From a virus, in the UHGV virus genome UHGV-0076294: 64,000 nucleotides of DNA; one strand, written 5' to 3'. The translations under genes were made by a program, and so were the position numbers. The stretch's first letter is position 1; the number at the start of each line of letters is the position of its first letter. Positions 899 to 58,642 of the stretch are shown here, piece by piece. The notes beneath the pieces are model-generated. The model did not search any database. It was not told the DNA's origin and saw only the letters and a program-made list of their open reading frames with translations.

Positions 899-929
899 GG
901 TGGGGTGTAAACCCCACCTTTTATTTTTT
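899..929 (+). terminator. intrinsic terminator
   Basis: Hairpin GGTGGGG-tgtaaa-CCCCACC followed by TTTTATTTTTT. Confidence 0.65.
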
Positions 930-951
930 GTTCTCTAACATTAAAAATAAT

Positions 952-976
952 CTCAGATATATATTACTTAGGTGAG
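952..976 (+). promoter_or_regulatory. phage promoter-like motif CTCAGATATATATTACTTAGGTGAG
   Basis: Intergenic, 48 nt upstream of ATG 1024; near-identical copy at 58177-58201 and related copies at 18684, 27784, 9216. Confidence 0.45.
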
Positions 977-1023
977 AGTTAAGATTAACTCTTTTACTTG
1001 TTAACCCCACGAGGAGAAAAACA

Positions 1024-1485
1024 ATGAAAATCTTCACTTCCTTTTTAATCGGCCTTCTCGCAATCGGATTCAATACTGCACACGCTGCAATCAATAGTTG
1101 GGAACAACTACAGAACCCAGGTCAAGCTGTTTACGAAATCGAAGACACCACCGGAAACGGACTGTCTATCAACTGTGACACTGAAACCGCGAATCGCAAA
1201 TTTTACGGTCGCATGGTTTGGTATTACGGGGAACCTGTAGGTGCAACTAACGCTGAAGACAACACGCTGGATATTGTCGTAAATGGCAAAACTTACAACA
1301 TCCCTACCGTGGATGGTAGTGACAAAGCAGAACTCGCTTGGGTGGCTTTCGTTAATGCTATCGGCAATGCCAAAACTTTCAGTGTGAATATCAACGGAAA
1401 CGAAGCCGCTAACTTTACCGTAGAAGGCGAACGTCTGTCTGAAACTTTCTTCCAGAACTGTGGACACACCCGTCCTAACAAATAA
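1024..1485 (+). CDS. small secreted protein (signal peptide), unknown function
   Basis: N-terminal MKIFTSFLIGLLAIGFNTAHA signal-peptide-like; GAGGAG RBS; 2 Cys in mature part. Confidence 0.7.
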   Translation: MKIFTSFLIGLLAIGFNTAHAAINSWEQLQNPGQAVYEIEDTTGNGLSINCDTETANRKFYGRMVWYYGEPVGATNAEDNTLDIVVNGKTYNIPTVDGSDKAELAWVAFVNAIGNAKTFSVNINGNEAANFTVEGERLSETFFQNCGHTRPNK

Positions 1486-1506
1486 GTATTAATCTTTTTA
1501 GAGTGC

Positions 1507-1899
1507 GTGAAAATGAATATCAGAACTATACTTTATACCATCATTATTTTCTGTGCAGTCGGTATTACTGCCACTTATGCTTTCGGTGATTCGGATGTCC
1601 GCTATTACGAACCGGCTCCTGACTCACCGATTATCAACCCGGATGAGTCGCCTACGTTAATGCGCAGTTTCGGTAAACTGCAAGTTTATCGTTTAGTGCG
1701 TGGTGAATCGTGTACCGGATTACTCATTGCTGACACCCGTGCACAAGTCTACCAACGTCTGACGGATATCGCCTGCGAACAACCAAAAGTCATGTCGGTC
1801 AGTATTCATCCGTTAGAGGTCGGTAACTATACTGCTGTGGACTTCTTCCATAATGCAGAACTGATTGGTCGTATTACTTTAAATCGTAGCGCTGAATAA
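1507..1899 (+). CDS. small secreted or membrane-anchored protein
   Basis: Hydrophobic N-terminus ILYTIIIFCAVGITATYAFG; 130 aa; tightly spaced after previous gene. Confidence 0.65.
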   Translation: MKMNIRTILYTIIIFCAVGITATYAFGDSDVRYYEPAPDSPIINPDESPTLMRSFGKLQVYRLVRGESCTGLLIADTRAQVYQRLTDIACEQPKVMSVSIHPLEVGNYTAVDFFHNAELIGRITLNRSAE

Positions 1900-1917
1900 T
1901 TTAATGGAGAAATTACA

Positions 1918-2400
1918 ATGAAACGTTTACACACCCTGATGCTCTTCGTGGCTATTCTGTTCACGGGCTTTAACTTTAACGCAGAAGCGGCTAGTGTAAA
2001 ACAAGCACTTAGTTGTAACCCGGAAGCCTGGGCTGAACAACCCGGTGCGTGTCCTGATATCAATACGCTCTATACCGACGACGCTACTTATAAAGCCGCG
2101 ATCGATAAAGCGTTGAAACCGGTCGGACTGGACGGATTATTCGGTAAAGATGGTGTAATGAATGGTCCTGGCGGCGATGTTATTCCCGTGCAAATCAACG
2201 GCAAAATCTGGCTTGAAGCTACTGGTTGTAAAAGCAATGCTTGTGGTTGGGAATACATCACGACGCTTTATAACCCGCAGACCCATGTCGTGGTAGGTTA
2301 CTATTACAACGTCGACCCAGGTTACCTGGTTTGGTTTGGCGATATCGGCGTTAATGAATTCGCCTATCTGGTTAAGAAATACGTAGCTACGGTTAATTAA
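1918..2400 (+). CDS. small secreted cysteine-containing protein
   Basis: Signal peptide MKRLHTLMLFVAILFTGFNFNAEA; 4 Cys in mature region; RBS GGAGAAA. Confidence 0.7.
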   Translation: MKRLHTLMLFVAILFTGFNFNAEAASVKQALSCNPEAWAEQPGACPDINTLYTDDATYKAAIDKALKPVGLDGLFGKDGVMNGPGGDVIPVQINGKIWLEATGCKSNACGWEYITTLYNPQTHVVVGYYYNVDPGYLVWFGDIGVNEFAYLVKKYVATVN

Positions 2401-2415
2401 TTTAAGGAGTCTGTC

Positions 2416-2826
2416 ATGAAAACGTTTATCAAAACTTTACTCGTTGCTGTAACTGTTCTGTTCTCTCTTAACGTAGCAGCAAAAACAGTAAAACTACCGG
2501 CGGGTATCAAATACGTCAACAGTACCGATGAATTCTACTGCACAGAAATCGACGGTCTGTATTGCCAGACAAAGAATTTGTTTGAATACAAAGGTAACAG
2601 ATATGTTTTCGTTGTTGAGCAAGGTGGTGCCTGGTGCTACGACAGCCCTATGTCGGTACTCAACCTGGAAACTTGGAAAGCACAGAAAATTGAATACAAA
2701 GACAACCAATTGTGTTCAGGCGAAAACAAACCGTTCTTCAAAATCAAAAATGGTGTCCCGACTGTAGGTATTATCGACACCTCTGGAGCACCAATCGTTG
2801 TAGCTCAGGACAAACTTAAAATCTAA
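2416..2826 (+). CDS. small secreted cysteine-containing protein (paralogue of 2837-3226)
   Basis: Signal peptide; shared pattern C-x6-CQ...GNRYVFVVEQGGAWC with the next gene; RBS AAGGAG. Confidence 0.7.
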   Translation: MKTFIKTLLVAVTVLFSLNVAAKTVKLPAGIKYVNSTDEFYCTEIDGLYCQTKNLFEYKGNRYVFVVEQGGAWCYDSPMSVLNLETWKAQKIEYKDNQLCSGENKPFFKIKNGVPTVGIIDTSGAPIVVAQDKLKI

Positions 2827-2836
2827 GGAGTAAACC

Positions 2837-3226
2837 ATGCGTCTTATCTGCGCTTTGTTGGCGTTTTTCTCAATCGGAGTTATGGCTTCTACACACATCG
2901 ACGATTTATTACTTACCCCGGCAACGAACACAGACTATCACTACAACCCACCGGGTTTTGAAGTCTGCGAAGGCGATGCAGGCGAATGCCAAGAAGTTGG
3001 CGCAGATGGACGCTATATACTCGTAAAAGCAGACGGAGGAACAACCTGCCCTGCGGGTTATTATTTCGTACTTGACTCTGTAGCAAAAGAGGTACTTCCT
3101 GTAACGACCAAAACGTGTGACCCCACAGTTGTACTAACGCTTGCGAAAAGCAAATCACGTGACCGTCACTTTATTGTCATCGAAGAACGCGGTGAGATGT
3201 TAGGTGCTATCGAATTAGATTACTGA
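2837..3226 (+). CDS. small secreted cysteine-containing protein (paralogue of 2416-2826)
   Basis: Signal peptide MRLICALLAFFSIGVMAS; CEGDAGECQ...DGRYILVKADGGTTC matches previous gene; RBS AAGGAG. Confidence 0.7.
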   Translation: MRLICALLAFFSIGVMASTHIDDLLLTPATNTDYHYNPPGFEVCEGDAGECQEVGADGRYILVKADGGTTCPAGYYFVLDSVAKEVLPVTTKTCDPTVVLTLAKSKSRDRHFIVIEERGEMLGAIELDY

Positions 3227-3237
3227 TGTGTAGTCTT

Positions 3238-3277
3238 GACCCCGGCACGTGCCGATTCGTCCGGGGTCCTTTTTACG
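3238..3277 (+). terminator. intrinsic terminator
   Basis: GACCCCGG / CCGGGGTC stem with 15-nt loop, then CTTTTTACG. Confidence 0.55.
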
Positions 3278-4495: not shown

Positions 4496-4528
4496 TTTAC
4501 ACCACGCTCCGTGAATATGGAGGTGGAC

Positions 4529-7033
4529 ATGTTAAAAGTTGAACGTATTGTACTTAAAGGGTTTACCGGAATGGGATTACACGAAATCGAAACCTTCGAT
4601 TTTACTATCCATTCCCCAACCACCATTATCCTCGGTGGTAACGGCTGCGGTAAGACCAGCTTACTGTCCGTGTTTCTACCTATCGCACCTTCGAAATCCG
4701 AATTCCGTGACGGGGGTTCTTACACCAACATCTGTTTGGTTAACGACCATCGTTACAAATTTAAGGTTGCACGTAAAGGCAACTCACTGGTTTGCGATAT
4801 CGAGAACCTGACGACGGGCACCAAAATCGTCGAACAAGGTAATGCGAAAGTGTATAACTCTCGTGTAGAAGAAATCACGGGCATTACAAAAGAGATTAAA
4901 GAGTTACTGAACGGAGAAGTGCTTTTAACGGATGCAGGAACGGAACTGCGTCGTAAGTGGTTCTACCGTTTAAGTACGTCAGACTTAACTTACGCGTTAG
5001 GTTTTTATCAACGTTTACGAAAAAACCTGACGATGTTAAACGGCGGTATTGAAATCACCAGCCGCAAGATTGCAGAGTTGCGTACCCGCGTGATTGATAA
5101 CGAGGAAGAACGTCAGCAGTTAGCAACACGGTTAAAAGCATTAGAAGTGGATTTACGTGAAGTCAACAAACAGATTGAACAACTGCCTGGTCTGAATCGC
5201 GACGTTACGGTGGCAACGATTCAATCGCTATTGCTTAAAATCGAAGCACCGATTAATGCTATCTTGGAACACCGTGGCGGATTACCTACGGAAGAACGGG
5301 TAGAGGAAGCACGACGCGTTGAAGCCACTGCCCGTGAAGCGGTGGTCTCTGCTGAAACAGAACTGTCCATGCTAAACAAAGATTTGTCTTTGTTGATGGA
5401 CGAGTCTACCCGCCAAGATTACCTGATGCGGAATCACGAAGGGTTAAAGAACACGGTTGCAAAACTGCGTGAGTTATTAAAGCAGTGGGACACCGAACAT
5501 CTTTTCCCTGAACTGTTTGCGGAGACCGTTAACATCGACCAGCTTAAAGCAGCGACGGATGCGCGTGTCTGGGGACAACGTTTAGGAACAACGCTGGACG
5601 CCATTAAATCGACAGAACGGTTGAACGTACTGGAAGAGAAACTGTTGACCTTAGACCAAAACTCATCTGGGTTGCGTGACCGACTACAACGCGTTGAAAA
5701 CGTATTGCAGAACCTCAACCACGAACGGAATCACTATTTGGAAACCGCCGAGGTTGATTGTCCGCAGTGTCAATTTAAATTCCGTCCGGGCGTGCGTCGT
5801 TCTTTGCCTGAATTGGAAGAAGCCATTCGTGGACAAATGGAGCAACGTAATACGTTACAGACTCAGCTTGATTCCGTATTGCGAGACCGTACGGAATTAG
5901 AGTCGGACGTTAATTACATGCGTCAAGTACGAGAAATCGTTTTAACATACTCGAAAGACCCGGTATTGAGTTTGTTCTTTAAACGTCTCCAGGAGCGGAA
6001 TGTCTTTACGGATAACCGCAGTCAATTCGGCAGTTTGTGTGCAGAGTTCGATCGTGAACTTTATTCCGCAATTGAATACCACGAAACGAAACACCGTTTT
6101 GCTAAAGCGGAAAAAGAGTGGGCAAACGCAGTTGCAGCGGTAGGTAACGTTGACGGTGCACTACAGCAGAAAATTGCCTTCCAGCAGGAGCGTTTGGGTA
6201 AGGCGACAGAAACGCTCTCAGAGCGCCGTAGAGAGCACGCAGTTGCTAATGATACCTTTTGTTATCTAAACGAACTTAAAGCCACTGTAGACAATTTTAA
6301 TGCGGTTTTTGAGCGTTTAGAGAACGATGTTAAGGTAACATTAACCAATACGGTGGTCGAAACGTTATTAAACGCCCGAGAAAACAAGTTGGATGCGTTC
6401 ACCACAGCACGGGAACGGTACCGTCAGATGGAAAACGAGCTCAACCAACTTACTGCGTTAGAAAAGGAGTTATCGGATTTACAGGCACAGCAATTCAATA
6501 ACAAACTGATGATTCAAGCGTTCTCGCCCGAGAAAGGGGTATTACGCAAATACTTCTACAACGCTATCGTGAGAATCACAGAATTAATGACGCGCTATAT
6601 CGAACAAGTCTGGACCTACCCTATGCGGGTCATGCCGTGTGACTTAACCGATGGTGACTTAGACTACACGTTCCCAGTGCAGTTAAAAACCCATCCTGAA
6701 CCGGTACCTGACGTGCGGAAAGGGTCGAAAGCACAGCGAGCCATCTTTAATTTGATGTTTCGTTTAACCGCTTACAAAGCCCTGAAACTTCATCAGTATC
6801 CGCTACTGTTGGATGAACCGTCAGAAGGGATGGATGAGGAACACCGAAATAACCTCGTCGGGTTTATTAAAACCCTGGCGAATTCCGGTGAGTTCTCTCA
6901 GTTACTGGTGGTATCTCACGAAGCAGAAATTCATTCAAAACTTAACGAAGCCGCATACTGTGTTATTGAACCTGAAGGCGTAACACTGCCTGCGGTATAC
7001 AACGAGGGAGTAAAAATTGTCTACGCAAACTGA
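4529..7033 (+). CDS. Rad50/SbcC-like recombination ATPase (T4 gp46-like)
   Basis: Walker A GGNGCGKTS, long coiled-coil middle with CPQC zinc-hook-like motif, Walker B LLLDEPSEGMD and VVSHE H-loop near C-terminus. Start moved to ATG 4529 after GGAGGTGG RBS (ORF track 4511). Confidence 0.7.
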   Translation: MLKVERIVLKGFTGMGLHEIETFDFTIHSPTTIILGGNGCGKTSLLSVFLPIAPSKSEFRDGGSYTNICLVNDHRYKFKVARKGNSLVCDIENLTTGTKIVEQGNAKVYNSRVEEITGITKEIKELLNGEVLLTDAGTELRRKWFYRLSTSDLTYALGFYQRLRKNLTMLNGGIEITSRKIAELRTRVIDNEEERQQLATRLKALEVDLREVNKQIEQLPGLNRDVTVATIQSLLLKIEAPINAILEHRGGLPTEERVEEARRVEATAREAVVSAETELSMLNKDLSLLMDESTRQDYLMRNHEGLKNTVAKLRELLKQWDTEHLFPELFAETVNIDQLKAATDARVWGQRLGTTLDAIKSTERLNVLEEKLLTLDQNSSGLRDRLQRVENVLQNLNHERNHYLETAEVDCPQCQFKFRPGVRRSLPELEEAIRGQMEQRNTLQTQLDSVLRDRTELESDVNYMRQVREIVLTYSKDPVLSLFFKRLQERNVFTDNRSQFGSLCAEFDRELYSAIEYHETKHRFAKAEKEWANAVAAVGNVDGALQQKIAFQQERLGKATETLSERRREHAVANDTFCYLNELKATVDNFNAVFERLENDVKVTLTNTVVETLLNARENKLDAFTTARERYRQMENELNQLTALEKELSDLQAQQFNNKLMIQAFSPEKGVLRKYFYNAIVRITELMTRYIEQVWTYPMRVMPCDLTDGDLDYTFPVQLKTHPEPVPDVRKGSKAQRAIFNLMFRLTAYKALKLHQYPLLLDEPSEGMDEEHRNNLVGFIKTLANSGEFSQLLVVSHEAEIHSKLNEAAYCVIEPEGVTLPAVYNEGVKIVYAN

Positions 7034-7535: not shown

Positions 7536-7979
7536 ATGGAAATTTATTTGTTGAACGCACTTTCTAAAATCGGTGAAGAACAAGCGAAAGATTTACTCGC
7601 ACTTCATTACCGTTACTTAGATCATCAAGCAACGATGCTGAAAATCAAAACCGCTGTACCGAAATTAAACGTGCGTCAACTGATCGAAGGCAACTGTGTT
7701 GTTCTGATTTATATCGACGATGTTGCGGCGGGTTATTGCAGTTACCGTAATCGCAACGGGGTACTCAAAATTCGTTCGCTATACGTGCTGCCCGATTACC
7801 GTCAGCGTGGGGTAATGAAAGAAATCTTCAAAGCGATAGCCGCTGATGAAGCATTCGGTGAAATTGCAATTGGGATGTACACGAAGTGCAAAGAAGCGAA
7901 AGAGTATTTCATTCGTCGTGGCTACAAAGCAACCTATTCTCACGATAAAGAATGGGTGGATTTCAGTAAAACTTTCTAA
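7536..7979 (+). CDS. GNAT-family N-acetyltransferase
   Basis: Core VLIYIDDVAAGYCSY...LKIRSLYVLPDYRQRGVMKEIF matches the GNAT acetyl-CoA binding motif (Q/R-x-x-G-x-G/A); 147 aa. Confidence 0.65.
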   Translation: MEIYLLNALSKIGEEQAKDLLALHYRYLDHQATMLKIKTAVPKLNVRQLIEGNCVVLIYIDDVAAGYCSYRNRNGVLKIRSLYVLPDYRQRGVMKEIFKAIAADEAFGEIAIGMYTKCKEAKEYFIRRGYKATYSHDKEWVDFSKTF

Positions 7980-8695: not shown

Positions 8696-9220
8696 ATGCT
8701 TACCTCACTCGGTAAGACCGTTATGCTAACGATACTTCCAGAATCGGATATTGACAACGACCTGTTTAACGCCCCTGAGCGCTTCAAGGTCGTTACGATA
8801 AATTGTGTAGGGGCAATGGGTCGGGGTATCGCTTTAGCGTGCAGAGAACGCTATCCTGGTCTTTATCAGGACTACCGAGAACGTTGCTTCGCTAACGAGA
8901 TACGAATAGGGAATGTGTACGTTTATCCCGAGGAAAACTGCATTCTCTTACCAACTAAAACACATTGGAAACTGAAATCCCAGGTTTCTTATGTTATCGC
9001 GGGTATCACCGCGTTGGCAGATGCCGCAGAAAACTTAGAGGGTGGGGTGGCTTTACCGCCGTTAGGGATGGCCACCGGTTGGTTGACAAAAGCTGAACGT
9101 CAACAAATCTTTTTGTTTATCGAAAAGAAACTCGTACCAAGGAGACAACATTACCGTTTCTATTTACCCGAACCGCTTTACCAAGAAGCAAAACCTTTAA
9201 TTCCAAACCTTTTTAAATAG
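8696..9220 (+). CDS. macro-domain-like protein (putative ADP-ribose binding/hydrolase)
   Basis: FKVVTINCVGAMGRGIALA ... ILLPTK ... VALPPLGMATGWL resembles the macro-domain motif order (N-x-x-G-x-x-G-x-G then PxxGxGxxG). Start uncertain (8696 or 8723); possible 35-aa ORF 8622-8729 in another frame. Confidence 0.45.
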   Translation: MLTSLGKTVMLTILPESDIDNDLFNAPERFKVVTINCVGAMGRGIALACRERYPGLYQDYRERCFANEIRIGNVYVYPEENCILLPTKTHWKLKSQVSYVIAGITALADAAENLEGGVALPPLGMATGWLTKAERQQIFLFIEKKLVPRRQHYRFYLPEPLYQEAKPLIPNLFK

Positions 9221-9238: not shown

Positions 9239-9320
9239 ACAACAAAGGAGTACCAGCTGTCCGCGCCGTGATTTCGTTCTACGGAATACGGAAATGTATA
9301 AATCCAACTGGAGAACTAGT

Positions 9321-10007
9321 ATGTTTCGTATCTTCTTTCTTTTACTGGTAACACTTTTCGCGTTTAACGCATACGCATCCAAATCCGCACCCAGTGCCAA
9401 ACACCATCGTGAATTCGAAATGATTCAAGACCGTTTCGAACGGGTAAAACCGTTGATTGTGGAAATCTCTCGAAAGCAGGGTGTTGATCCTAATTTAATG
9501 ACCACGCTAATCTATCGAGAGTCACGGTTTAATCCGAAGGCGTATAATCGAACGTCTAAAGCGCACAGTCTGGTTCAGATGCTACCGAGCACAAAGCGCA
9601 ATTTGCTAAAACTCTACGGTGCCGAAATCGGACTTAGTCGCAATGCGGATTTGTACAATCCTCGTAATGCGGTGCTATTGGCTTCCGTCTACGTTAAACA
9701 TTTAGAAAAGGGGTTAACTAAACGACTCAAACGCAAGCCCACTATTGCAGAAATAGCATTGGCTTATCACTGGGGTGAAAGCGGTGCACACGCCAGGATT
9801 AAAAGCAAGTCTCGGGCAGCACAACGAGAAATGGCGAGCTTTATGAAAGATGCAACGTTCTACAGTGCGAAAATCAACAAGCCTGTAGCATCTCGTCAGC
9901 TTGCGTTTGCGAAGAAACCAGAACGCCAGATTCAGTTAGCAGAAGTTAACCGAATTTGGGATACGATAAACACCAGTTTTCCATTTAAACAAGGAGTCAC
10001 CCTTTGA
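9321..10007 (+). CDS. secreted lytic transglycosylase (SLT domain), endolysin or periplasmic candidate
   Basis: Signal peptide MFRIFFLLLVTLFAFNAYA; SLT motif LIYRESRFNPKAY...SLVQMLPST (catalytic Glu-Ser context). Start at ATG 9321 after GGAG RBS (ORF track 9294). Confidence 0.75.
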   Translation: MFRIFFLLLVTLFAFNAYASKSAPSAKHHREFEMIQDRFERVKPLIVEISRKQGVDPNLMTTLIYRESRFNPKAYNRTSKAHSLVQMLPSTKRNLLKLYGAEIGLSRNADLYNPRNAVLLASVYVKHLEKGLTKRLKRKPTIAEIALAYHWGESGAHARIKSKSRAAQREMASFMKDATFYSAKINKPVASRQLAFAKKPERQIQLAEVNRIWDTINTSFPFKQGVTL

Positions 10008-15232: not shown

Positions 15233-15688
15233 ATGAAATCGCTGTTATTCATCATGATTTTGTGCGTGGGTTTGGTGAGTAATAGCTATGGAGAACCCGG
15301 TAAACGGTCATCCTATACTGCGTTACAGCCTCCGCCAGCGCCACCTATCATGTTAAATTGGAAAATTGATAAAGACGCGATGCGGGAATATGTTGCGGAT
15401 GTGAATACATACGCTTATTACGTTTATCTCTACACACGAAACTTAAATCAGCAAGCAGTCAAACGCGGGTGGAATCCACCGATGTTAGCACCTATCTGCG
15501 AACGGTTTGAAATTCCTAAATTACATTCCGTTCCAGAAAAGATGCTATTAGACGAGAAAGCGTTAACGCCACAAGAAATCAGTCGGGATTTATCACGTAA
15601 ACTGAATTCGTTGTTGTGGAATTATCGCTCTGACCGGCAAGCTTTATTAGACGCCTACGATCAGTATCTGACAACGTGTTTGAACTGA
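15233..15688 (+). CDS. secreted protein (signal peptide)
   Basis: N-terminal MKSLLFIMILCVGLVSNSYG signal-like; starts 3 nt after previous stop. Confidence 0.55.
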   Translation: MKSLLFIMILCVGLVSNSYGEPGKRSSYTALQPPPAPPIMLNWKIDKDAMREYVADVNTYAYYVYLYTRNLNQQAVKRGWNPPMLAPICERFEIPKLHSVPEKMLLDEKALTPQEISRDLSRKLNSLLWNYRSDRQALLDAYDQYLTTCLN

Positions 15689-58158: not shown

Positions 58159-58176
58159 AACCCTATTGAAAAATAT

Positions 58177-58201
58177 CTTAGATATATATTACTTAGGTGA
58201 G
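58177..58201 (+). promoter_or_regulatory. phage promoter-like motif CTTAGATATATATTACTTAGGTGAG
   Basis: 24 of 25 nt identical to 952-976; 51 nt upstream of ATG 58253; conserved ACTTGTTAACC box in the leader of both copies. Confidence 0.45.
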
Positions 58202-58252
58202 CGTTGTAGAATTACACGCTATTCGACTTGTTAACCTAAAGGAGTATTAAAG

Positions 58253-58642
58253 ATGAAAAACGAATTATTCAAAGACCCGTTTGTTGTATTACTGATTTCT
58301 ACTCGTGCTATCATGCGTCCAGATGACCTGGAACGATTAATTACAGACGAAGCTTATCTGTGCGAGCAGCGTGACAAACTACTGAACAAAGAATGTCCAG
58401 ATGAGTTAATCGAACCTTTTGTACGTATCATTCGCGATGAAGAATGGCGTAAAAAAAATCAACTGTCTGAAAACATCGCCGTATCAGTTGGATGTCTGTT
58501 TATGGTTTTTAAGTTCGACAAAGACATCTGGTACCTCTTTACTGACGAAGAACGCAAAGTCTTAATGGACGATCTTCAACTTGCCACAAAACGTGTTAAC
58601 AAATTCGTCGCTAACCGTACGCAGGTAAATCTGGAAAGATAA
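58253..58642 (+). CDS. hypothetical protein (paralogue of 58644-59033)
   Basis: 129 aa; N-terminal ELFKDPFVVLLIS resembles ELIEVCRDPFTLWLLCS of the next gene; AAAGGAG RBS. Confidence 0.55.
   Translation: MKNELFKDPFVVLLISTRAIMRPDDLERLITDEAYLCEQRDKLLNKECPDELIEPFVRIIRDEEWRKKNQLSENIAVSVGCLFMVFKFDKDIWYLFTDEERKVLMDDLQLATKRVNKFVANRTQVNLER

Follow-up and report, generated by a model that had tools for sequence, protein, structure and literature searches.

Periplasmic proteins that are made early by a phage and block incoming phages are known from the T-even phages and, to our knowledge, not from the nucleus-forming jumbo phages, whose early programme consists mostly of genes without assigned function. 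The T4 protein Spackle, which is made early by the phage and acts in the periplasm, inhibits the tail lysozyme of a superinfecting phage (PMC7677548). Ivy-type proteins are periplasmic as well, and the loop with which they enter the active-site cleft of C-type lysozymes is braced by a disulfide (PMC7677548). The locus described here is an array of five small genes, g1 to g5, located at positions 1024-3226 of the virus genome UHGV-0076294, of which a stretch of 64,000 nucleotides, referred to as the window, was analysed. The array forms an operon of predicted periplasmic proteins that would be expressed early in infection, and one of them, g3, is assigned to the Ivy superfamily. The reading preferred here, which is put forward tentatively, is that these proteins are periplasmic effectors acting at the cell wall, that g3 is most likely an inhibitor of a peptidoglycan-cleaving enzyme, and that the most likely purpose of the operon is the exclusion of other phages.

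The five genes constitute one operon, since a promoter motif and five tightly spaced genes, separated by gaps of 10-27 nucleotides, are bounded by two terminator hairpins (Table 1). A clear GGAG-type ribosome-binding site lies ahead of four of the five genes, the one of g2 being weak, and g1 starts 64 nucleotides behind the promoter motif, which is of the phiKZ early type. This motif, TATATATTACTTAGGTGA, is present in two copies in the window (958-975 and 58183-58200), against 0.03 expected, and two matches were obtained in none of 100 shuffled controls. The published early consensus is TATATTAC for phiKZ and TATATTACDWHDGTG for 201phi2-1 (PMC7058600 Table 2). The motif of the window agrees with both, and the AT-rich element ahead of g1 contains TATATTAC. 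At the DNA level, the promoter element is 85-95% identical to intergenic elements of SPN3US-, phiEaH2- and Huxley-like phages; the sole further cross-genus DNA match of the region is a 110-bp stretch inside g4 (phiEaH2/Stratton, 74%). Comparison of 12 related phage loci revealed the motif upstream of the transcription unit of the array in ten of them, at a distance of 91 nucleotides in SPN3US, of 0.6-0.8 kb in Huxley-like phages, in which one or two extra genes are interposed, and of 1.7 kb in Erskinevirus, in which gp200 lies between; near the array of the other two loci no promoter motif was found. That the array would be expressed early, as the first-pass annotation of this DNA had suggested from the promoter-like element, is a well-founded prediction, because the motif equals the early consensus of jumbo phages that encode a virion RNA polymerase and recurs upstream of the array in most related clades.

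Table 1. Coordinates of the five genes of the array and of the elements that delimit their transcription unit in the window.
Feature	Positions	Strand	Description
Intrinsic terminator of the upstream unit	899-928	+	8-bp GC stem, then T-run; fold -17 kcal/mol, z -3.2
Early promoter motif (virion RNA polymerase type)	930-975	+	A-rich stretch, then TATATATTACTTAGGTGA at 958-975
Small hairpin at the predicted transcript start	975-994	+	AGAGTTAA-GA-TTAACTCT, spotted by eye
g1	1024-1485	+	153 amino acids; predicted exported protein of the YfjT/YkfB family, two conserved Cys; accessory
g2	1513-1899	+	128 amino acids (130 from a GTG start at 1507); predicted exported core protein
g3	1918-2400	+	160 amino acids; predicted exported, divergent Ivy-superfamily protein; accessory
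g4	2416-2826	+	136 amino acids; predicted exported 4-Cys core protein, paralogue of g5
g5	2837-3226	+	129 amino acids; predicted exported 4-Cys core protein, paralogue of g4
Terminator-like hairpin closing the operon	3238-3275	+	GACCCCGG...CCGGGGTC, then CTTTTT; fold -22.9 kcal/mol, z -3.3

Export of the products was assessed with a simple heuristic for signal peptides, based on a basic N-terminus, a hydrophobic core and an AXA-type site. In all five leaders the basic N-terminus is followed by a hydrophobic core of 10 residues, with a Kyte-Doolittle mean of 2.7-2.9, and by a cleavage site of the AXA type, the sites predicted for g1 to g5 being AHA/A, TYA/F, AEA/A, VAA/K and VMA/S, respectively. 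Among the 70 non-overlapping open reading frames of the window only seven are positive, and five of these seven form the consecutive run of the array. The leaders are present in every orthologue despite sequence drift. The mature parts of g1 to g5 contain 2, 2, 4, 4 and 4 cysteines, at positions conserved among orthologues, and all five genes are under purifying selection, with ratios of non-synonymous to synonymous substitution rates (dN/dS) of 0.03-0.23. Export of all five products to the periplasm is thus likely, because no orthologue lacks a signal peptide and the families to which the proteins are related (Ivy, YfjS/YafY and YfjT) are extracytoplasmic. The first-pass annotation had described five consecutive genes with Sec-type signal peptides and two to four cysteines in the mature part, and this description holds, by the heuristic and by the conserved cysteine positions; nor was any homology to structural or lysis proteins found, which would have contradicted it. 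Its view of the products as a single family is wrong, as the five proteins are assigned to at least four families and only g4 and g5 are paralogues. A lysis cassette (holin, spanin or antiholin) was also considered for the array and rejected: the endolysin homologue of the phage is part of a different unit, 6 kb further downstream, the array has an early-type promoter, and the products have neither a second transmembrane segment (maximum 19-residue hydropathy below 1.1) nor a lipobox.

g3 is the only member of the array for which a biochemical activity can be predicted. It is classified as a divergent member of the Ivy superfamily because a profile built from 11 g3-family sequences recovers proteins named as Ivy, and because 26 of 30 aligned members of the family match the Pfam Ivy model, PF08816, at E<=0.01. 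This profile recovered 57 proteins among 1.84 billion representative proteins, and its full-length distant matches, where they carry a name, are called 'Ivy family c-type lysozyme inhibitor' (E=3e-21 to 1e-5), including proteins of Pectobacterium (E=3e-21), Chromobacteriaceae and Janthinobacterium. The Ivy models of Pfam and NCBIfam align to the same region of g3, and in profile-profile comparison (hhalign) the g3 family and Ivy of Escherichia coli K-12 align over 75 columns (P=8e-4), with their Cys-x4-Cys loops in register. Like Ivy (E. coli YkfE, Pseudomonas aeruginosa Ivyp1/2), g3 is a predicted Sec-exported protein with a mature part of about 135 residues and a predicted core formed by a beta-hairpin, the Cys-x4-Cys loop and a second beta-hairpin, in register with that of Ivy (CK..xC, then G). 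It differs from Ivy in scoring below the curated cut-offs of the family, in an additional N-terminal pair of cysteines (C33 and C45, in a C..CP motif common to a subgroup of Ivy-like proteins), and in the place of its gene, which is found in a lytic jumbo phage and in mobile islands and is not a housekeeping gene. The loop is also different, since C104-K-S-N-A-C109 of g3 retains both cysteines and the Lys of the CKPHDC loop of Ivy, as well as the Gly that comes next, with Pro replaced by Ser, His by Asn and Asp by Ala; homologues in E. coli islands have CKAHAC at this position, and distant relatives CE[AP]HNCG. Fold searches were weak, because the AlphaFold2 models of g3 and g5 only reach a predicted local distance difference test score (pLDDT) of about 46-47. 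With the g3 model (11-sequence alignment, pLDDT 47), Foldseek placed Ivy chains at ranks 1-7 of 350,542 PDB chains, with E values of 0.25-1.0 and template-modelling scores of about 0.3, which are not significant. Within its phage clade, g3 is the fastest-diverging gene of the array, with 63% amino acid identity between sister phages versus 96% for g2.

g4 and g5 are paralogues, in agreement with the first-pass annotation, as judged by pairwise BLASTP (29% identity over 73 residues, E=0.002) and by profile-profile comparison (hhalign probability 93.5%, P=2e-7). The motif that had been given for the pair is roughly right except for the spacing of its cysteines, which is x7 in g4 and x6 in g5 instead of x5-6. 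g4 is the orthologue of gp182 of phage SPN3US (phrog_8968, E=2e-37) and g5 that of gp183, and both are also related to the gp181 type of the same phage (hhalign 96%). Both proteins are probable but unproven distant relatives of the YfjS/YafY lipoprotein domain (PF20494). The g5 family aligns to YfjS in hhalign (55% probability, P=1.2e-4, 91 columns) and to YfjS/YafY in hmmsearch at Z=4300 (E=0.0017 for YafY, and 0.004), and this weak profile similarity, which extends via g5 to g4 and the gp181 type, includes the pattern C-x2-G-x-YY-x-[LV]-[DN] ... C. PF20494 itself matched neither g4 nor g5 nor any of their orthologues at E<=1; YfjS scores 229 bits. YfjS and YafY are lipoproteins that carry a lipobox and have only the second pair of cysteines, whereas the leaders of the phage proteins are of the signal peptidase I type, ending without the L-x-x-C lipobox, and their mature parts have four cysteines. 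The AlphaFold2 model of g5 (26-sequence alignment) is poor (pLDDT 46), and its matches to immunoglobulin domains were dismissed as noise. The g4/g5 profile also matched 'ThreeFoil', a designed beta-trefoil, with 7 bits for each of three repeats, and this was dismissed as a coincidence of motifs.

g1 is assigned to the YfjT/YkfB family (PF27224), which is recorded on near-identical orthologues of g1 in the loci L008-L010. Its alignment to K-12 YfjT (BLAST, 26% identity over 135 residues, E=1e-13) retains both cysteines, W26, an AW pair and other residues. g2 has orthologues in SPN3US (gp180), Asesino (gp201) and phiEaH2, at 46-51% identity (phrog_9424, E=6e-42), and contains two conserved cysteines in its mature part plus one inside the hydrophobic leader. 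No relative of g2 was found in the PDB or Pfam, its matches being confined to the orthologues of jumbo phages, and profile searches of the PDB with the g1, g2 and g4/g5 families returned nothing credible. A relationship of g2 to g4/g5 or to YfjS found no support (hhalign P 0.06-0.24), and a lipoprotein nature was rejected, as a proper lipobox (LAAC) exists in SPN3US only and the other orthologues have V or F at -1.

The source of the window is identified as an E. coli jumbo phage, of a clade that has no representative in the GenBank phage collection searched (INPHARED), because of four features. Downstream of the array, the SMC/SbcC-like gene (840 amino acids, 4511-7033) shares 68-69% identity with its counterparts in Asesino and phiEaH2 (Erskinevirus) and 57% with the one in SPN3US; the gene order surrounding it is conserved; the entire array is found, at 96.8% DNA identity, in NZ_CP173450.1, a circular replicon of 221,873 bp from an E. 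coli urine isolate; and the array is also carried by metagenome contigs of 107-225 kb. This replicon, named 'plasmid p98232-contig_4' in RefSeq (E. coli strain 98232, human urine), is the genome of a sibling jumbo phage, in which the annotation pipeline (PGAP) calls g3 an incomplete pseudogene, apparently as a result of a miscalled start. Asesino, phiEaH2 and SPN3US belong to those jumbo phages that encode two multisubunit RNA polymerases, one of the virion and one non-virion (PMC7598289).

Across the 12 related loci the array is modular, with a core triad (g2-g4-g5) and two accessory cassettes (g1 and g3). The triad is present in all 12. Huxley/ChrisDB-like Erwinia phages have the triad only, Erskinevirus and Seoulvirus have a third paralogue, of the gp181 type, between g2 and g4, and in the E. 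coli phage clade to which the window belongs the slot of gp181 is taken by the Ivy-like g3, with g1 in front. Among the phages examined, g1 and g3 are confined to this clade, and tblastn found no match for either of them in 50,697 deposited phage genomes. The corresponding genes of SPN3US (gp180-gp183), Asesino (gp201-204) and phiEaH2 resemble the array in their position upstream of the SMC-like gene and in their early promoter, with g2, g4 and g5 orthologous at 34-52% identity, and differ from it in having the gp181-type paralogue where the window phage has g3, and in being devoid of g1. All these syntenic genes are annotated as hypothetical. PADLOC gave no match for any of the five proteins, and a literature search retrieved nothing relevant on SPN3US gp180-183, on the function of YfjS/YfjT or on periplasmic or exclusion proteins of jumbo phages.

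A hairpin located just after the promoter motif is kept in eight copies from four phage clades, with two compensatory pairs. These copies are at 975-994 and 58200-58222 of the window and in the loci L008, L013, L014, L017, L018 and L019; the one at 975-994 was not significant in single-sequence folding. The second promoter copy (58183-58200), which is identical to the first, precedes an open reading frame of 129 codons (region 58160-58642), whose orthologue in a sister phage (L014:3770-4141) is lodged between the promoter and g1 of the array. The promoter-plus-gene cassette therefore appears to be mobile within the genome.

Fragments of the array are also found in bacterial chromosomes, as 2461 of 5426 complete E. 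coli genomes contain DNA similar to it. Homologues of g3, with 64-74% identity, reside in E. coli within CP4-57-type elements, flanked on one side by genes for a dynamin-like GTPase, RdcB and a patatin and on the other by a block of DUF932, antirestriction, RadC, DUF987 and CbeA/CbtA genes. In one type of island (L004-L007), a frameshifted g2, 81% identical at its C-terminus, lies directly upstream of an intact g3. Another type (L027/28) contains g3 (67%), g4 (79%) and the first eight or so codons of g5, with 76% DNA identity over 962 bp, and its g4-g5 junction is that of the phage save for a short gap just ahead of the stop codon. With dN/dS values of 0.14-0.22 between phage and islands, g3 and g4 are evidently maintained as genes after their capture. 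The block most likely moved from a phage of the clade of the window into the islands, since g2, g4 and g5 belong to the core in the phage lineage but are truncated flanks in the islands. An island of Yersinia rohdei has, beside a YfjT homologue and in the slot of the K-12 YfjS, a protein of the gp181 type that shares 73% identity with one from an Erwinia phage; K-12 itself harbors the gene pairs yfjS-yfjT (in CP4-57) and yafY-ykfB (in CP4-6). The island fragments, the Yersinia slot and the K-12 pairs indicate that jumbo phages and islands draw on one pool of genes for small periplasmic proteins.

Just upstream of the captured g2/g3 fragment, the islands encode a Cys-rich protein of 180 amino acids with a signal peptide (L004-L007:7098-7640 and L027:5400-5499), and in other islands the N-terminal part of this protein is fused in frame to g3, yielding products of 223-227 amino acids (P0003, P0004, P0007 and P0008). 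The neighbours of the island genes (L005:2612-6965 and L024:532-6977) comprise the dynamin-like GTPase, with a weak LeoBC match, RdcB/YjcZ, the patatin-like phospholipase, a WYL regulator and a phospholipase D-like protein. This setting resembles a defence island, though the PADLOC scores are weak.

The model proposed here is that the virion RNA polymerase would transcribe the unit from the TATATATTAC promoter soon after infection, and that the five products would be exported through Sec, lose their signal peptides and become oxidised to small disulfide-bonded proteins of the periplasm. The paralogues g4 and g5 would each fold into an all-beta domain with four cysteines, for which kinship with the YfjS/YafY lipoprotein domain is probable. 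g3 would bind, like Ivy, a peptidoglycan glycosidase, either a lysozyme or a lytic transglycosylase, the latter being reportedly also a target of Ivy-type proteins, and its C-K-S-N-A-C loop, constrained by a disulfide, would block the cleft. In this way the operon would shield the wall of a cell that has just been infected from muralytic enzymes, with the tail-borne lysins of other incoming phages as the prime candidates. The timing, the disulfides, the inhibitor activity, its target and the role in exclusion are what we infer, and a role in guarding the wall is favoured because T4 Spackle (gp61.3) provides a precedent for an early periplasmic inhibitor made by a phage. Spackle and other early periplasmic proteins of superinfection exclusion are small products of early phage genes that bear a signal peptide and act in the periplasm, as is proposed for the proteins of the array, and the resemblance is one of proposed function only: Spackle is an alpha-helical bundle that acts allosterically, whereas Ivy-type inhibitors insert a loop, and there is no relationship in sequence or fold. 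The retention of g3 and g4 by islands without the rest of the phage would fit a function that benefits the cell alone. Superinfection exclusion, one of the roles that the first-pass annotation had put forward, is thus plausible by analogy; inhibition of envelope enzymes, another of them, finds support for g3 only, by its assignment to a superfamily of lysozyme and lytic transglycosylase inhibitors, and nothing speaks for receptor masking.

Several observations weigh against this model. g3 does not reach the curated threshold of either Ivy model, with 14.0 bits against PF08816 (cut-off 21, E=0.059) and 17.2 bits against NCBIfam NF007443 (cut-off 180, E=0.0034), and the AlphaFold models of g3 and g5 are poor. 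As the canonical His and Asp of the loop are replaced by Asn and Ala, the binding mode or the target of g3 may differ from that of Ivy, or g3 may be no inhibitor at all. E. coli already has an Ivy of its own. As g3 and g1 are absent from other phage genera, the function that is conserved in the operon has to be sought in g2, g4 and g5, for which no biochemistry can be predicted. Finally, the phage encodes an endolysin with a lytic transglycosylase (SLT) domain and a signal peptide, which is an equally obvious target for an inhibitor, one related to the timing of lysis and not to exclusion.

This endolysin is at the origin of the main rival to exclusion, namely that the periplasmic proteins, and g3 in particular, would restrain the SLT endolysin of the phage, or lytic transglycosylases of the host, until the right moment, averting premature lysis during the long cycle of a jumbo phage. 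The endolysin homologue (9294-10007; PF01464, E=3e-14) has a cleavable-looking Sec-type signal peptide in the window phage as well as in phiEaH2, Asesino and SPN3US, and would thus reach the wall without a holin; its likely true start is the second Met (MFRIFF...). However, SPN3US, phiEaH2, Asesino and the Huxley-like phages possess the same enzyme and lack g3, an inhibitor made early would have to be in stoichiometric balance with an enzyme made late, and the E. coli islands retain g3 and g4 in the absence of the endolysin, so that this explanation is considered rather unlikely. Somewhat less probable again is that the proteins remodel the envelope or signal stress, by binding porins, the Lpt or Bam machineries or peptidoglycan, or by chaperoning, with a change in permeability or receptor availability as the outcome. 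The core triad bears no signature of an inhibitor family, K-12 Ivy is named 'periplasmic chaperone, inhibitor of vertebrate C-type lysozyme' in RefSeq, and overproduction of YafY, the YfjS homologue, reportedly induces the envelope stress protease DegP; yet no positive evidence points to any of these targets, and the proposal is mostly an argument from ignorance on g2, g4 and g5.

The membership of g3 in the Ivy family would also agree with the role that is usually ascribed to bacterial Ivy, here a defence of the infected cell against external lysozymes in the animal gut, the other genes of the array being unrelated morons. E. coli of human and animal origin is the source of both the sibling phage and the islands, and Ivy has a protective effect on E. 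coli cells whose outer membrane is permeabilised (PMC2267010). Nevertheless, this seems improbable, as the His of the loop that engages lysozyme is Asn in g3, E. coli already encodes both Ivy and MliC, and the conserved triad, which occurs as well in phages of the plant pathogen Erwinia, would be left unexplained. Far-fetched in comparison is the notion that the N-termini serve as uncleaved membrane anchors, or direct the proteins to the membrane-bound early infection vesicle of nucleus-forming phages. The leader of g2 is long and has a conserved Cys in its middle, which in SPN3US is part of a lipobox-like LAAC, and an early membrane vesicle is reported for relatives of this group of phages; however, four of the five leaders are short textbook n-h-c signals with AXA sites, the homologous families are periplasmic proteins or lipoproteins of ordinary bacteria that have no such vesicles, and islands retain the genes. 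The tentative preference thus stays with periplasmic effectors that guard the wall and exclude other phages.

Other genes of the window lie further away from the array. The region 7536-7979 / 8696-9220, between the SMC-like gene and the endolysin, includes a GNAT acetyltransferase, for which Pfam matches are recorded on the L008 orthologue, and a probable macro-domain protein, proposed from its position relative to Asesino gp217 ('Appr-1-p processing') only. An open reading frame of 151 codons at 15233-15688 has a signal-peptide-like N-terminus and no family match.

With no match in the deposited phage genomes searched, g3 would be the first Ivy-type inhibitor encoded by a phage, and the array provides a testable handle on a conserved, unannotated block, that of SPN3US gp180-183 and its relatives. 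The transfer of the block to CP4-57-type islands links lytic jumbo phages to the y-genes of the cryptic prophages of K-12, and suggests that bacteria re-use exclusion genes of phages. A bolder proposal, which is regarded as unlikely at present, is that the operon is a toolkit of periplasmic anti-lysin or exclusion factors, from which CP4-57-type islands of E. coli and Yersinia repeatedly took g3, g4 and the gp181 type as an anti-phage defence at the level of the envelope. If this were true, nearly half of the E. coli strains would carry an uncharacterised periplasmic defence made of Ivy-like and YfjS/YfjT-like proteins, and the long unexplained K-12 pairs yfjS-yfjT and yafY-ykfB would belong to the same system. 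The notable contribution of this operon is that it adds a phage-borne relative of Ivy, and a widespread capture by islands, to what is known of early periplasmic effectors of phages.

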